Origin: a virus
Direction: 5' to 3' (one strand)
UHGV virus genome: UHGV-1461890
DNA: 41,432 nt
The notes under the pieces were generated by a model that made no database searches, was not told where the DNA came from, and saw nothing but the letters and a program-made list of their open reading frames with translations. Shown in pieces: positions 10,006 through 30,290 of this stretch. The translations under genes and the position numbers were made by a program. Positions within the stretch are counted from its first letter, which is position 1, and every line of letters starts with the position of its first letter.

Positions 10006-10254
10006 ATGGCAAATAACACAGCCGCAAATAAACCCGAAGTGGTTAAAGAAAAGATAGTAAAAATCATTGTTCCTAAAACAAGGGAATTGCAAGATGATGT
10101 TTTTGTATCGGTGAATGACCGTACATGGCAGATTCAAAGAGGCGTTGAGGTAGAAGTTCCTGAATGTGTTGTTGAGGTATTAAAACACCAGACAGAAATG
10201 GAAAACATAGCTCTCGCATACGAAGCACAGGCCTCAAGTCCTAAAAATCATTAA
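10006..10254 (+). CDS. hypothetical small virion-associated protein
   Basis: Track ORF starts at GTG 9997; ATG at 10006 has AAGGAG SD 8 nt upstream; flanked by hairpin terminators on both sides. Confidence 0.4.
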   Translation: MANNTAANKPEVVKEKIVKIIVPKTRELQDDVFVSVNDRTWQIQRGVEVEVPECVVEVLKHQTEMENIALAYEAQASSPKNH

Positions 10255-10265
10255 GTAAAAAATTT

Positions 10266-10290
10266 GGGGAGTTCTGAAACTCCCCTTTTA
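10266..10290 (+). terminator. rho-independent terminator
   Basis: Perfect 8-bp stem GGGGAGTT-CTGA-AACTCCCC followed by TTTTA. Confidence 0.5.
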
Positions 10291-10311
10291 TCAAATTTGG
10301 AGGTAGACACA

Positions 10312-10680
10312 ATGAAGATTATTGAAGCAATACAACAGGTGGATGCTCTCAAGCCTAATAACTATAGTCAGGAAGACAAGATAAAATGGCTGTCTACCCT
10401 TGACGGAATCATTAAAAAGGAAATCATAGATACTCACGAGGGCGGCAACGAAATCGTATTTAACGGATATGATAGTTCTTCACTTGAGACAGAACTGCTT
10501 GTACCGGCACCTTATGATGATATCTATATCAAATGGCTTGAGGCACAGATTGATTATAACAATAGTGAAATAGGAAAATACAACAACAGTATGACTATGT
10601 ATAACTCGGCTTATAGCACCTTTGAAAGATATTACAACAGAACTCACATGCCGATAGGAAAGAAATTTAAATACTTTTAA
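10312..10680 (+). CDS. hypothetical protein (possible head completion/adaptor by position)
   Basis: Track ORF begins at TTG 10264; ATG 10312 has GGAGG SD 8 nt upstream. Confidence 0.4.
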   Translation: MKIIEAIQQVDALKPNNYSQEDKIKWLSTLDGIIKKEIIDTHEGGNEIVFNGYDSSSLETELLVPAPYDDIYIKWLEAQIDYNNSEIGKYNNSMTMYNSAYSTFERYYNRTHMPIGKKFKYF

Positions 10681-10691
10681 GGAGGAATATT

Positions 10692-27265: not shown

Positions 27266-27270
27266 ACACA

Positions 27271-27304
27271 ATATAGGGGGGGTTTAGACAAGCCTCCCCT
27301 ATAT
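27271..27304 (+). terminator. stem-loop after giant gene (12-bp stem, 10-nt loop), possible terminator or RNA processing site
   Basis: ATATAGGGGGGG ... CCTCCCCTATAT inverted repeat; weak T-run downstream; contains motif TAGGGGGGGTTTAG also present at 3328. Confidence 0.4.
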
Positions 27305-27337
27305 GTTAATATTTTAATGAAAATGGAGGGAAATTTT

Positions 27338-29203
27338 ATGAATTATGCAGTATATAATATTGCTCTTGACATACATAAGACAGGCTCTCAGGTAGCCTTG
27401 CCTATGATAAGAGGCGAGAACAAAAGAAAAATAGTTATCTCTCTTACCGAAAATGGTAGGCCATATAAAATAGCAAGTGGCTGCACAGCAAAGTTTGCAG
27501 CCTTTAAGCCTGACGGAAAACCTATTTATAACGATTGTGTTGTAGATATAGAAAACAATCTCATAATTTACACCATTACTTCTCAGACAACAGCAGTTAT
27601 GGGTGAAGTAAAGTGCCAAATTGAACTTATTGGAACTGATGACGGTTTACTCTTCTCCCCTACATTCAGCCTTATAGTTGCAGATAAATTATATAACCAA
27701 GAGCCTATATTAGCCTCATCCGAGGAGTTTAATGCTCTTACTGCCTATGTTGCTGACCTTCAGAAAAAACTTGATAATGGCGAGTTTAAAGGTGATAAGG
27801 GTGACAAGGGAGATAGGGGAGACCGAGGACCTCAAGGTGTTCAGGGTGATACAGGTCCTGCCGGTAAAGATGCAGACTCCTCTTCCCTATCTCCATCTAT
27901 TATATGTACCGAAAAGGGAACTGCAATTACTATTTCGGATAGTTCTGAGTCGGGATTTGAGGCTTTTAGCATATATGGAAGGTCCACTCAGAATGGAACA
28001 CCGACACCTTCGGCACCTGTAAACATTGCCTCGGTTGGTGATGATGGAAAGATTATTGCCGGTGTACAAGACAAAACTAATATATTTGATACTGTGTTCA
28101 CAAGCGGTGGCATTACTCAAGATACAGGAAAAGAATTCGTTGATACTACATTACAACGAACGGATTATATTTCCGTTAAGGAAGGGTCTATCTATAAAAT
28201 ATCAGGGTTAGGTGGCCCGGTCAGAATATTCTGTTACAATGCAAACAAAGTGTTTTTGTCCTCAATTTATGGAACGACAGGCGAATGGTTTGTTGTTCCA
28301 ACATCATGTGCTTTTATTAGATTTCATATAGTAATAGCTAATTACAACAAAGACTTGAAGGTAAATCGAATTAATGCAATAACCTTAGAAAATCGTGTGT
28401 TAAGAGCCATCCCTGTCACCGACTCAAGCCTCGCTACATACACCGATACTAACGGTCAAATGTGGTGCGCTGATGAGATAGACTTTGAGAGAGGAGTTTA
28501 TATTCAAAGATGCTATACTGAAACTATATCAATGACGTATGAAGAAGCAAATAACCGATATATAGGGGAAATAAGTAAAAATGCCAACTCGAAAATATCA
28601 AATAGCATTGGGATAATTGTTCTTACCGATAAATTGCCTTATAACGAGAATGCAGGAAAGATAGACGAAGCAGTGAATGGTGTGCGTGTATCTTACGGAA
28701 ACAAAAAAGCGGTAATTGCTTACTTTAATGACGAGGTCATATCTTCGCTCAATATTCTCTATCCGTTAGAGATATCAATCGAAACACCTTTAACCTCAGA
28801 ACAAATTGCAGCATACAAGGCCCTGAAGACAAATTACCCATCTACAACCATATTAAATGATGAAAATGCATTTATGAAGGTGGGATATAGAGCTGATACT
28901 AAGAAGTTTATAGAGAAAATGTCAGGCTCGACTACTCAGATTTCTTCCGTTACTCTTGCTGCTTCAAAATGGGTAGGCACAGCAAGTCCATATTCTCAGG
29001 TTGTGACAGTTCCGGGTGCTACTAAAAACAGCAAGATAGACCTTAACCCTTCCGTTGCTCAGCTTGGTATCTTCCATAATAAAGATATTTCCTTTGTGGT
29101 TGAAAATGATGACGGAGTAATAACGGTATATTGCATAGGTCAGAAACCTACAAACGATTACACAATACAAGCCACAATTACGGAGGTGTATGTAAATGGC
29201 TAA
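27338..29203 (+). CDS. tail fibre-like protein with collagen-like Gly-X-Y repeat
   Basis: Start moved to ATG 27338 (GGAGGG SD 8 nt upstream). GDKGDKGDRGDRGPQGVQGDTGPAGKD = nine Gly-X-Y triplets; position before lysis genes. Confidence 0.6.
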   Translation: MNYAVYNIALDIHKTGSQVALPMIRGENKRKIVISLTENGRPYKIASGCTAKFAAFKPDGKPIYNDCVVDIENNLIIYTITSQTTAVMGEVKCQIELIGTDDGLLFSPTFSLIVADKLYNQEPILASSEEFNALTAYVADLQKKLDNGEFKGDKGDKGDRGDRGPQGVQGDTGPAGKDADSSSLSPSIICTEKGTAITISDSSESGFEAFSIYGRSTQNGTPTPSAPVNIASVGDDGKIIAGVQDKTNIFDTVFTSGGITQDTGKEFVDTTLQRTDYISVKEGSIYKISGLGGPVRIFCYNANKVFLSSIYGTTGEWFVVPTSCAFIRFHIVIANYNKDLKVNRINAITLENRVLRAIPVTDSSLATYTDTNGQMWCADEIDFERGVYIQRCYTETISMTYEEANNRYIGEISKNANSKISNSIGIIVLTDKLPYNENAGKIDEAVNGVRVSYGNKKAVIAYFNDEVISSLNILYPLEISIETPLTSEQIAAYKALKTNYPSTTILNDENAFMKVGYRADTKKFIEKMSGSTTQISSVTLAASKWVGTASPYSQVVTVPGATKNSKIDLNPSVAQLGIFHNKDISFVVENDDGVITVYCIGQKPTNDYTIQATITEVYVNG

Positions 29204-30290
29204 AATTTATGGTGGTACAATCACAACACCAATCAATCCGGAAATGTTTGGTGGTAATGCCAACACTATAAAGAACAGTGTAAGCGGTAGCATAGTAACC
29301 ATACCTGACATTTCACCTATTGAACATAATCTAGATATTAAGTTGACAGGAGAGGTTGGAGTTGAGGTATTTGATATTTCTCAAATATCGAGCAATGATA
29401 CCATTCAGGTAAATGTGGAAAATGGCACAATAACAACAGGCGACGCTAAAGGCTATACAACTGAAAGCTTTGGAGCATTATATCCTGAAATTAAAGATGG
29501 TGACAAAGTAACAATTAGTTATAAATCAAATGGCAAAATATATGTTGGTGAGGGGTTGTTTGACGAAAGCGAAGAAAACGGCATTATATATTTGCGTTTT
29601 ATTGCAAGTGAAAATTACCATTTAACAAGCTCGATTGCTTTTAGTTCAGAAACAACCTATACCAATATAAGCATTAAAGTCGCCCGACCAATAGTCGATT
29701 TTTCTGATGTCGAGGTTATCAGTAGCGGTAAAAATCTGTTTAATGTTGATGTATTTGTATCTAATGAAAAAGGAATTACAAACAATGGCGACGGAACATT
29801 AACCGTTACACAATATCCTTCGTATACAGACCGCACATTAGCAGATTTATTCCCTGCTTTAAGAGTGGGCGACACTATTATATTTAACGTAGATACTAAT
29901 TATACAGATTATTACCATAAGATGATTTATTTAAGTAGCACTACACATAAAATTAGAATTGGTACACCATACACCATAAAAAAGGGTGACTTGTCTGATA
30001 AAGTGTGTCTATATTGCTATAGAGCAGATGGCGTAAACTACCCAACTACTTTTTCTAATATGCAAATAGAATTGGGAACTGTAAAAACAGAATATGAGCC
30101 TTACCGAGAACCACAAATTGTCAGGGCAAATGCCGACGGTGCGGTTAAAGGACTTAAAAGTATTTATCCCACAACTGTTTTAAAGGCAGATACAGAGGGT
30201 GTAATAATCAACACTACCTACAATGTTGATACCAAAACATATATAGACCGAAAATTTGCCGAGCTTTCACAGGCACTACTTAATTTATAG
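29196..30290 (+). CDS. putative tail fibre/receptor-binding associated protein
   Basis: ORF track; overlaps upstream fibre gene by 8 nt. Confidence 0.4.
   Translation: MAKIYGGTITTPINPEMFGGNANTIKNSVSGSIVTIPDISPIEHNLDIKLTGEVGVEVFDISQISSNDTIQVNVENGTITTGDAKGYTTESFGALYPEIKDGDKVTISYKSNGKIYVGEGLFDESEENGIIYLRFIASENYHLTSSIAFSSETTYTNISIKVARPIVDFSDVEVISSGKNLFNVDVFVSNEKGITNNGDGTLTVTQYPSYTDRTLADLFPALRVGDTIIFNVDTNYTDYYHKMIYLSSTTHKIRIGTPYTIKKGDLSDKVCLYCYRADGVNYPTTFSNMQIELGTVKTEYEPYREPQIVRANADGAVKGLKSIYPTTVLKADTEGVIINTTYNVDTKTYIDRKFAELSQALLNL

Follow-up and report, generated by a model that had tools for sequence, protein, structure and literature searches.

A probable podovirus-type tail module and a giant polyvalent protein in an uncultured temperate gut Clostridia phage

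The window analysed here, the whole 41,432-nucleotide sequence UHGV-1461890, very probably represents all or nearly all of the genome of a temperate, as yet uncultured phage that infects gut Clostridia (Oscillospirales) and has a podovirus-type short tail. The genes of the region described here (Table 1) all lie on one strand, with a spacing of -14 to 63 nt between neighbours. The gene order given in a preliminary description, made from the sequence alone, agrees with the ORF list: the major capsid protein (MCP) is followed by two small ORFs, by proteins of 573, 238, 518 and 393 aa, by a giant protein, by proteins of 628 and 364 aa, and by the lysis genes (Table 1). Two details are amended. 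The second small ORF, counted before as 138 aa (10264-10680), has its conserved start at M17 (position 10312), giving 122 aa; and the Collagen Pfam match of the 628-aa protein is sub-threshold (19.3 against 27.2 bits), the repeat itself being plain in the sequence as a run of nine G-X-Y triplets (aa 159-185).

Table 1. Features of the virion and lysis region of the window
Feature	Position	Strand	Assignment or remark
Portal protein, P22-like family, 667 aa	5482..7485	+	Pfam P22_portal, PHROG 156
Prp-type cysteine peptidase, 114 aa	7498..7842	+	PHROG 4478 peptidase, E 1.5e-12
Scaffolding-like protein, 321 aa from ATG at 7898	7898..8863	+	ORF opens at 7829
Major capsid protein, 340 aa	8927..9949	+	PHROG 1357, E 4e-92; Pfam Phage_capsid_3/4
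Small conserved virion-module protein, 82 aa	10006..10254 (ORF 9997/10006-10254)	+	PHROG 15239
Head-to-tail adaptor, 122 aa	10312..10680	+	Equivalent of P22 gp4 / T7 gp11 "tubular protein A"
Tail nozzle / hub, 573 aa	10692..12413	+	Equivalent of P22 gp10 / Sf6 gp8 / T7 gp12
Needle- or fibre-anchor-like protein, 238 aa	12413..13129	+	Conserved N-terminal ~200 aa, variable distal end
DUF859 tail protein, 518 aa	13142..14698	+	Pfam DUF859, E 3e-7; PHROG 372 tail protein, E 2e-18
393-aa protein	14720..15901	+	Family often with peptidoglycan-binding modules
Giant polyvalent protein, 3,782 aa	15917..27265	+	Pfam ART-PolyVal, E 2e-21; PHROG 22978, E 1e-184
Giant: Gly/Ala-rich, moderately hydrophobic glycine-zipper-like region, aa ~440-630	17234..17806	+	Composition and hydropathy scans
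Giant: zincin metallopeptidase core, aa ~1000-1250	18914..19666	+	HELTH at aa 1108-1112, E1166
Giant: ART-PolyVal ADP-ribosyltransferase domain (predicted), aa 2188-2354	22478..22978	+	Pfam PF18760
Giant: conserved C-terminal region, aa 2520-3594	23474..26698	+	Positions 2044-3088 of the 3,513-position PHROG 22978 profile
Tail fibre, 628 aa	27317..29203	+	BppU_N anchor, collagen G-X-Y run, mosaic distal part
364-aa protein	29196..30290	+	Fibre-associated by position only
Lysis cassette: two small proteins, holin candidate, endolysin	30303..31893	+

Intact terS/terL, portal, protease, scaffold, MCP, tail and lysis modules are present, together with an integrase, repressors, RecE/RecT, an SSB and a DnaD-like loader. 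A serine recombinase is encoded and the lifestyle is temperate. The same repeat found at both contig ends suggests a closed genome, and many relatives occur on contigs of ~41-45 kb, near the window's own size. As metagenomic contigs are its sole source, the element might be taken for a defective prophage or for a producer of gene-transfer-agent-like particles, and GTA-like podovirus-type particles do occur in related gut families; the full set of intact modules, the size of the relatives and the terminal repeat make this highly improbable.

The portal matches Pfam P22_portal (E 1e-31; score 110.6 bits, cut-off 26.1) and PHROG 156 (E 2e-83), and its sole match among PDB sequences is the portal of podovirus GP4 (8jov_0, E 0.006). 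Peptidase_Prp is recorded by Pfam for the 114-aa gene and its orthologues, and the product is probably the head-maturation protease. The 321-aa protein belongs to a family of unknown function (PHROG 13908); its composition and its position between the portal/protease genes and the MCP gene, the same as in phages Page and API480, suggest a scaffolding-like role. The MCP is 37-39% identical to those of the podoviruses Page, Pony, Pookie and API480. Homologues of the 82-aa protein are found in 43 of 80 IMG/VR loci, at the same position wherever loci were mapped.

The tail core would be formed by the next two proteins. The 122-aa protein has the helical-bundle fold of head-to-tail adaptors and its gene adjoins that of the nozzle; the adaptors of T4 (gp13), Mu (gpJ) and P74-26 are also among its structural matches, ranked lower. 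This fold is common to long-tailed phages too, which counts against a short-tail reading. The nozzle/hub fold of the 573-aa protein was recovered by two methods and includes the beta-propeller feature of nozzles and hubs; the model has a low-confidence stretch at residues 299-372 (pLDDT <50). T7 gp12 and the Kp7/KP32 tubular proteins are among the structural matches of the tail-core proteins. At the sequence level, a profile search of PDB sequences with the adaptor alignment gave no match, a single-sequence phmmer search of them with the nozzle gave nothing meaningful, and hhalign found no homology between the nozzle profile and Page_10 or API480_11 (probability <1%). Tubular proteins had been expected among the four mid-size products; this holds for the 573-aa protein only; the adaptor belongs to the pair of small ones. 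In the proposed model, a ring of 122-aa adaptors followed by a ring of 573-aa nozzle proteins would be mounted on the P22-family portal; after the pattern of the P22/T7/GP4 class, the adaptor ring would be 12-fold and the nozzle ring 6-fold.

This core would be decorated by the 238-aa needle- or fibre-anchor-like protein and by exchangeable receptor-binding proteins (518, 628 and 364 aa). The family of the 238-aa protein comprises 138 homologous ORFs of related loci and stands directly after the nozzle wherever its position was checked. In longer homologues, of up to 1,166 aa, the N-terminal ~200 aa are retained and the extra length consists of C-terminal extensions or shaft repeats; one orthologue has weak matches to coiled-coil families; a profile search of PDB sequences with the family alignment found no match. 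We infer a needle- or fibre-anchor-like protein, which may act as a needle or hold lateral fibres. Matches of the 518-aa DUF859 protein to "tail protein" genes in other gut phages are no more than patchy, and phmmer against PDB sequences gave nothing meaningful for it as a single query. No homologue was found in the 80 loci with a ~50% identical nozzle, where a ~600-aa gene fills the slot instead; the protein is a candidate receptor-binding protein in a hypervariable slot. Homologues of the 393-aa protein occur in 63 of the 80 loci, and its orthologues can carry PG_binding_1 (13/39), LysM (3/39) or CW_7 (1/39) modules. The window's copy has no domain recognised by Pfam or NCBIfam, and the family alignment had no match in a profile search of PDB sequences; it is a candidate wall-penetration/ejection protein. 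The 628-aa fibre matches BppU_N (E 3e-15), PHROG 10972 (tail fibre, E 3e-24) and many other fibre families, with patchy segment matches to other gut phages. Its gene is overlapped by 8 nt by that of the 364-aa protein, for which no family match was found in PHROG, Pfam or NCBIfam. In the lysis cassette, PHROG 9987 points to the holin candidate and PHROG 435 to the endolysin (E 2e-43), and a 92-aa protein has one TM-like segment. The names BppU_N and DUF859 derive from siphovirus proteins, which counts against a short tail; the two were set aside as siphovirus signs because both proteins are receptor-binding modules at the periphery, whose matches are mosaic and patchy.

The giant gene takes up 27.4% of the contig. 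It lies on the same strand as its neighbours, separated from them by gaps of 15 and 51 nt, and a giant ORF stands at this position in all 20 mapped related loci >20 kb. The ART-PolyVal domain of the window's giant, a predicted ADP-ribosyltransferase, scores 77.8 bits (cut-off 31.2; E 1.8e-21), and the H and Y positions are present in its sequence, within MYHGTS and GSYFTD respectively. The most widely conserved segment is the zincin core, matched in 61-69 of 83 loci, in which H1108, E1109, H1112 and E1166 (HExxH...E) are invariant in 40 of 40 sequences. MPTase-PolyVal is the Pfam family most often matched by its members (7/40, best E 1.7e-4); the window's own segment has no Pfam match and no match among PDB sequences, nor did the core alignment give one in a profile search of PDB sequences. 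Giant orthologues carry DNA_methylase or SNF2 helicase (AAA_34/Helicase_C_4) domains and no ART match. The glycine-zipper-like region is possibly a membrane-inserting segment, and the strongest hydrophobic segment (aa 3533-3551) lies inside the conserved C-terminal region. Gly-rich hydrophobic segments occur in tape measures as well, an observation that counts against the reading as an ejected protein of a short tail. For most of the giant's 3,782 residues there is no match to a named LPD or enzymatic domain: a relaxed Pfam scan of ten overlapping pieces returned ART-PolyVal alone, self-BLAST detected no internal repeats, and single-sequence phmmer against PDB sequences found nothing meaningful. 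A MuF_C match (aa ~1351-1433, E 0.19) was below threshold and was discarded, as were other weak matches.

The preliminary description had seen no long-tail gene set between capsid and lysis genes and proposed a podovirus-like order, leaving the giant ORF as an unusually long tape measure as the alternative. The absence is confirmed: no major tail, tube, sheath, chaperone or tape measure family was found by PHROG, Pfam or NCBIfam in the 19 ORFs from terS to endolysin (NCBIfam covered 7 of them, with only sub-threshold noise), nor any long-tail family in 20 further ORFs of the window. It holds for 39 ORFs by PHROGs and for subsets by Pfam and NCBIfam, and for proteins that were not folded it is as strong as the sensitivity of profile HMMs. 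Neither Dit nor Tal families were matched, the ORF list contains no overlapping chaperone-type ORF pair, and tube or sheath homologues, looked for in 10692-15901, were not found there. The same order, again without long-tail genes, recurs in 20 of 20 mapped related loci >20 kb. The podovirus-like reading is further upheld by the P22-family portal, the adaptor and nozzle folds, and the capsid kinship and synteny with Page and API480.

A long-tailed phage would demand that the giant be an exceptionally long tape measure and that the tube and chaperone genes, for instance those of the 238-aa and 82-aa proteins, have diverged too far to be recognised. The position of the giant in the late operon ahead of the fibre genes fits this, as do its Gly/Ala-rich hydrophobic segments, its largely unannotated length, the 238-aa size within the range of tube proteins, and domains (DUF859, BppU_N) common in siphoviruses. 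Tape measures span ~1.5 Å of tail per residue, so that 3,782 aa would correspond to a tail of roughly 570 nm. The giant has no TMP-family match in PHROG, Pfam or NCBIfam, and carries ART-PolyVal and an invariant zincin motif, while orthologues have methylase or helicase cargo instead; it has no tube or chaperone partners, and it is flanked by the nozzle/needle/peptidoglycan-binding families on one side and by fibres on the other. Besides, an adaptor and a podovirus nozzle, which closes a short tail, come right after the capsid, the variable extensions and shaft repeats of the 238-aa family are unlike tube proteins, and the cultured phages with the nearest capsids are described as podoviruses. 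The tape-measure explanation is therefore rejected as exceedingly improbable, and where there is no tube no tape measure is needed.

The explanation that is preferred, and that we consider very probable as a whole, is a podovirus-type, short-tailed temperate phage with an adaptor and nozzle tail and a giant polyvalent protein that is packed and ejected. Gene content, folds, family memberships, synteny and the cargo differences among orthologues are its direct observations; the short tail of the particles is a prediction from gene content and modelled folds. Several unrelated enzymatic/effector domains (ART-PolyVal and the zincin core) are joined in one polypeptide, which is encoded among the virion/late genes of a portal-terminase phage and whose domains vary between relatives. 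By analogy, the giant is most likely a multi-enzyme polyvalent protein that is packed into the head and enters the cell with the DNA; its packaging, processing and ejection are modelled on analogues in other phages, such as phi24B gp47, of the same class, which is abundant in purified virions. A few copies would be packed, possibly cut by their own zincin peptidase, and would leave through the nozzle at infection alongside the 393-aa wall-binding-family protein. The Gly-rich hydrophobic part may contribute to bridging the cell envelope; the cargo enzymes, in this phage the predicted ADP-ribosyltransferase, would modify host targets so that the incoming DNA is protected or established.

Alternatively, a short-tailed phage could use the giant as a cytoplasmic conflict protein, expressed late or during lysogeny for superinfection exclusion or host manipulation and never ejected. 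Enzymatic domains require no virion context; hosts, too, capture polyvalent proteins, which might be directed at incoming elements (Iyer et al., 2017); and the only mass spectrometry evidence in a capsid relative, the detection of API480 gp16, comes from an unpurified lysate. This possibility is judged unlikely, given the abundance of phi24B gp47 in purified virions and a slot between nozzle/needle genes and fibres that is the place of ejection proteins in T7 and P22, tightly packed on the same strand and occupied by a giant ORF in all 20 mapped loci >20 kb. Moreover, the zincin core and the C-terminal PHROG 22978 region stay fixed like a scaffold while the cargo varies, and no other internal or ejection candidate is large enough, where a thick-walled host would presumably require one.

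Among known systems, the tails of GP4 (Ralstonia phage, PDB 8jov) and of Stx phage phi24B are among the closest. The P22/Sf6 machine (gp1 portal, gp4 adaptor, gp10 hub, gp26 needle and gp7/gp20/gp16 ejection proteins) is similar in detectable sequence in the portal only; no gp9-type tailspike is found here, and its three small ejection proteins contrast with one giant polyvalent protein and the 393-aa protein. The parallel drawn earlier with T7-like virions (gp11/gp12 tubular proteins, gp14/15/16 core, gp17 fibre) stands for the order of capsid, adaptor, nozzle, internal/ejected proteins and fibre. It fails for the families: the portal is P22-type, the phage encodes a serine recombinase and is temperate, its adaptor is shorter by far (122 aa versus ~200), and no phage RNA polymerase, T7-type replication genes or gp14/15/16-type core was found in the scanned ORFs, those of <~75 aa being scanned in part. 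Assignment to the T7 family (Autographiviridae) was rejected for lack of a single-subunit RNA polymerase or T7 core family. By family, the P22_portal match and the missing phage RNA polymerase place the tail machine nearer to P22/Sf6/GP4/phi24B than to T7.

The nearest cultured relatives by capsid (37-39% identity) are the Page group of Bacillus phages and Paenibacillus phage vB_PlaP_API480, which likewise have P22_portal portals and Firmicute hosts. Page has been described as a podophage, and API480 was found short-tailed by TEM. The gene order is as in the window: their capsid gene is followed by those of small proteins, of a tail protein of 660-730 aa, of mid-size proteins and of a giant (1,631-1,679 aa), and then by lysis genes. 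Page's giant protein contains the polyvalent-protein domain LPD38. However, tblastn of all 19 terS-endolysin proteins against Page and API480 recovered only MCP and TerL; the tail proteins have no detectable sequence homology to those of the window, the giant ORFs are less than half the size with no ART match, and API480 differs in its early region and encodes a DNA polymerase and primase of its own. Membership of Pagevirus or the API480 group was rejected, as beyond MCP and TerL only architecture is common. The polyvalent proteins defined by Iyer, Burroughs, Anand, de Souza and Aravind (2017) resemble the giant in being very large and multidomain, with ART-PolyVal and a putative zincin MPTase-like core, in late-gene position and with cargo varying between orthologues; at 27% of a 41 kb genome, the giant is an extreme case. 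By description, the phage can also be likened to prophages phi1/phi4 of C. clostridioforme LM41, from gut Clostridia, with ~41 kb, no tape measure or sheath and an ~8 kb ORF (~20% of the genome) resembling polyvalent-protein domains. TEM of LM41 culture supernatant showed mostly podovirus-like particles; the host is a Lachnospiraceae, and the giant ORF is smaller and at the prophage 3' end.

The block of "hypothetical" genes can now be annotated as adaptor, nozzle, needle/fibre anchor, receptor-binding slot, wall-binding and probable polyvalent ejection proteins. Where a tape measure is missing and a giant ORF is present, a podovirus that has a polyvalent ejection protein should be called rather than a siphovirus that has a very long tape measure, which is relevant to automated morphotype calls in viromics. 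The lineage is widespread in human and animal gut metagenomes without a cultured representative. Megablast of 24 kb of the module matched none of 50,697 phage genomes, and among these deposited genomes relatives were found only as unannotated faecal contigs. Nozzle proteins form >7,000 clusters at 90% identity, and relatives in MAGs, scanned at one genome per species, are labelled mostly Oscillospirales/Clostridia. The design principle of a giant injected multi-enzyme protein is already published and known from other phages; the differences in ART, methylase and helicase cargo offer a tractable system for the host functions that gut phages attack at DNA entry. Tentatively, this very abundant, wholly uncultured lineage might spend a quarter of its genome on one injected protein as a modular protein-delivery device, a fixed scaffold with a swappable effector bay that serves to seize control of Gram-positive gut bacteria in the first minute or to evade their defences. 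The scaffold would comprise the Gly-zipper region, the autoprocessing zincin and the conserved C-terminal third, and the bay would hold an ADP-ribosyltransferase, a DNA methylase or an SNF2 helicase.

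Pfam places the portal of the window in the P22 portal family (E 1e-31), and PDB sequences give a single match to it, the portal of GP4, a podovirus. For the capsid protein, identity to the major capsid proteins (MCPs) of Paenibacillus phage vB_PlaP_API480 and of the podophages Page, Pony and Pookie of Bacillus megaterium is 37-39%. The adaptor gene had been taken as a 138-aa ORF, and its start was moved to M17 (the ATG at 10312), where conservation begins, because the homologues are almost all of 122-123 aa. An adaptor with a nozzle directly after it makes up the core of a short tail. 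The preliminary description had proposed that the region lacks a recognisable long-tail gene set and is podovirus-like in order; its ORFs all lie where it placed them, on one strand and tightly packed (gaps of -14 to 63 nt), and both its lysis cassette (endolysin and candidate holin) and its collagen-repeat fibre, a 628-aa protein with a BppU_N domain and a run of nine G-X-Y triplets, are present. Families of major tail or tube protein, sheath, tail-assembly chaperone and tape measure were unmatched in the 19 ORFs from terS to the endolysin (PHROG and Pfam; NCBIfam on seven) and in 20 more ORFs elsewhere in the window, and the search for tube or sheath homologues across 10692-15901 was likewise negative. 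Portal, adaptor-nozzle order and the lack of tube and sheath homologues support the podovirus-like reading, and a short-tailed morphology is very likely. The parallel drawn with the tubular proteins of T7 holds as far as a podovirus-type tail is concerned, but of the two "small proteins" one is the adaptor, only the 573-aa protein is of tubular or nozzle type, and the machine stands nearer to P22, Sf6, GP4 and phi24B than to T7.

Features of the window by position
Feature	Position	Strand	Remark
6/18-nt tandem array, TGGCTC / CTGGCGATGGCTCTGGCT type	1-47 and 41375-41432		common to both ends
21-nt tandem repeats, 2.2-2.7 copies	1871-1927 and 40674-40717		the second falls within the DnaD-like loader gene (40265-41014)
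Prp-type cysteine peptidase (PF04327)	7498-7842	+	between portal and scaffold gene
Adaptor, longest ORF (138 aa, TTG start)	10264-10680	+	over-extended
Adaptor, corrected (122 aa)	10312-10680	+	
Nozzle (573 aa)	10692-12413		
238-aa protein	12413-13129		
518-aa DUF859 protein	13142-14698		
393-aa protein	14720-15901		
Giant protein (3,782 aa)	15917-27265	+	
Pfam MuF_C match, sub-threshold (E 0.19)	19967-20215		giant aa ~1351-1433, downstream of zincin core
BppU_N/collagen fibre (628 aa)	27317-29203		
Large serine recombinase	32111-33607	-	lysogeny module
HTH repressor-type genes, two, divergent	34441-34866 and 35204-35626	-	lysogeny module
Cro-like gene	35791-36045	+	lysogeny module

The giant ORF, which takes up 27.4% of the contig, had alternatively been considered an unusually long tape measure protein. 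Tape measures span about 1.5 Å of tail per residue, and the giant would imply a tail of about 570 nm; as it matches no tape measure family and no tube or chaperone partner was matched among the 39 ORFs scanned, this alternative is rejected. The giant protein instead fits the description of polyvalent proteins given by Iyer et al. 2017: these are large, occur in phages of the portal-terminase type, combine unrelated enzymes and often carry a zincin that may process them, and they are proposed to travel inside the capsid and to enter the host cell along with the DNA. Its one strong Pfam match is ART-PolyVal, an ADP-ribosyltransferase (ART) domain (aa 2188-2354, E 2e-21), and its C-terminal third matches a PHROG of 3,513 positions that carries no functional annotation. 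The most widely conserved segment (aa ~900-1250) contains HELTH at 1108-1112, with H1108, E1109, H1112 and E1166 invariant in 40 sequences. MPTase-PolyVal is the Pfam family most often matched by these 40, is reached by only 7 of them and gives no match with the window copy. The weak MuF_C match may be real, since MuF-C is the domain annotated in gp47, the polyvalent protein of phi24B. Residues ~440-630 are Gly/Ala-rich, with hydrophobic, glycine-zipper-like stretches. Of the orthologous giants at this genomic position, one (3,791 aa) carries a DNA methylase and another (4,288 aa) SNF2-type helicase domains, with no ART match on record for either. The lineage illustrates well how polyvalent proteins swap their cargo.

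The setting of these genes was followed in related loci fetched by nozzle homology, 80 from IMG/VR and 80 from bacterial genomes, at ~45-54% nozzle identity. All 20 loci longer than 20 kb share one gene order: terS, terL, portal, Prp peptidase, scaffold, MCP, a protein of ~80 aa, adaptor, nozzle, 238-aa homologue, a variable protein of ~600 aa, 393-aa homologue and giant ORF. The Prp-type peptidase, kept by the relatives at the same place, suggests that scaffold or capsid proteins are N-terminally processed. Such processing occurs in Staphylococcus phage 80alpha. Homologues of the 238-aa protein, 138 ORFs in the related loci, begin right after the nozzle at every locus where position was examined; their first ~200 residues are conserved, and versions of up to 1,166 aa gain C-terminal extensions or repeat shaft segments. 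This family appears to behave like an N-terminally anchored needle or fibre, either axial, as P22 gp26 and phi24B gp56, or lateral. The slot of the 518-aa DUF859 protein is filled across loci by proteins without recognisable homology, and the window protein has only patchy similarity to tail proteins of other gut phages; it is read as a candidate receptor-binding protein. The 393-aa family fits a putative virion protein that engages the thick Gram-positive wall, because PG_binding_1, LysM or CW_7 modules are found in 17 of 39 orthologues. In the window copy and its orthologues in the related loci (L003-L166), the N-terminal ~165 residues are conserved, with GG at 101-102, G112 and P128 invariant, and the tails are variable; the window copy contains no recognised domain and bears instead D/Q/W-rich repeats with ADQQWQ-type motifs.

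Taking gene content, folds, family memberships, synteny and the cargo differences between orthologues as established, the proposed model is that the adaptor, as a dodecamer, and the nozzle, as a hexamer, would assemble on the P22-type portal to form the short tail, with the 238-aa protein plugging or decorating the nozzle, and that the DUF859 protein and the BppU_N/collagen fibre would attach to the host surface. Once the particle is triggered, the 393-aa and giant proteins would exit from the head by way of the nozzle; the zincin of the giant protein may cleave the protein itself, the Gly-rich segment may contribute to a conduit across wall and membrane, and the ART would then modify host targets as the DNA enters. 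Packaging and ejection of the giant protein are, taken separately, fairly probable, and the overall reading of a short-tailed phage with a packaged and ejected giant protein is considered likely.

The design has already been described, given the precedents of Page and API480, phi24B, and phi1 and phi4 of C. clostridioforme LM41; only its assignment to this lineage is new. Page and API480 have P22-type portals, as the window does, and follow the same order as the window, with capsid, small proteins, a tail protein of 660-730 aa, mid-size proteins, an ORF of 1,631-1,679 aa and lysis genes. Page, described as a podophage, has the polyvalent-protein domain LPD38 in its giant ORF; API480 has by TEM a head of 58 nm and a tail of 12 x 8 nm, and its giant gp16 was detected by mass spectrometry (71 peptides) in unpurified lysate. 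No sequence homology to these two phages is detectable beyond MCP and TerL, and what they have in common with the window, judging from sequence, is architecture and not genus-level kinship. The temperate podovirus phi24B has a tail that closely resembles that of GP4, with portal, two adaptor rings, hexameric nozzle, needle and lateral fibres; its polyvalent protein of 2,811 aa is abundant in virions, is absent from the reconstruction and has been proposed as an ejection protein. LM41 phi1 and phi4 (~41 kb) have neither tape measure nor sheath and devote ~20% of the genome to a polyvalent-like ORF of 8 kb, and the culture supernatant of LM41 contained by TEM mostly podovirus-like particles.

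The value of this assignment lies in annotating an abundant, uncultured gut phage lineage. Clustered at 90% identity, the nozzle family falls into more than 7,000 groups; it has at least 546 loci in IMG/VR, and nozzle relatives are encoded by 491 stretches of a collection with one genome per species. In the 80 loci taken from bacterial genomes, the MAG labels are almost all Oscillospiraceae, Faecousia, Acutalibacteraceae, Eubacteriales or Clostridia, with a few discordant ones (for example Bacteroidaceae, Alistipes or Methanarcanum). Among 50,697 deposited phage genomes, matches came only from unannotated faecal contigs. One relative (L166, GCA_016852305.1) has an additional 81-aa 'Sequestin' gene (PF21825; 6677-6922) between Prp peptidase and scaffold gene and a weak Mom-like match at 1116-1553, upstream of the terminase, two features that the window lacks.

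Several relatives sit integrated inside bacterial contigs of 130-430 kb. The window itself (41,432 bp, G+C ~38%) is a temperate phage genome, as follows from its serine recombinase/repressor block and its early and late gene content. Nearly all genes are on the plus strand, except for a short minus-strand block (32.1-35.6 kb) that encodes the recombinase (Resolvase, Recombinase and Zn_ribbon_recom domains) and repressor-type regulators; the late region opens with terS, terL and portal, and the other early genes code for RecE/RecT-like recombination proteins, SSB, a DNA methyltransferase, a DnaD-like loader and a Holliday-junction resolvase. The two termini show no exact overlap with each other. 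Because both carry the same array of GGCTCT/GGCGAT-type hexamers, and many relatives lie on contigs of ~41-45 kb, the window is probably the whole genome, which is probably circular or permuted, with the assembly broken inside the tandem repeat. The second of the 21-nt repeats, inside the DnaD-like loader gene, could be of the iteron-like origin type.
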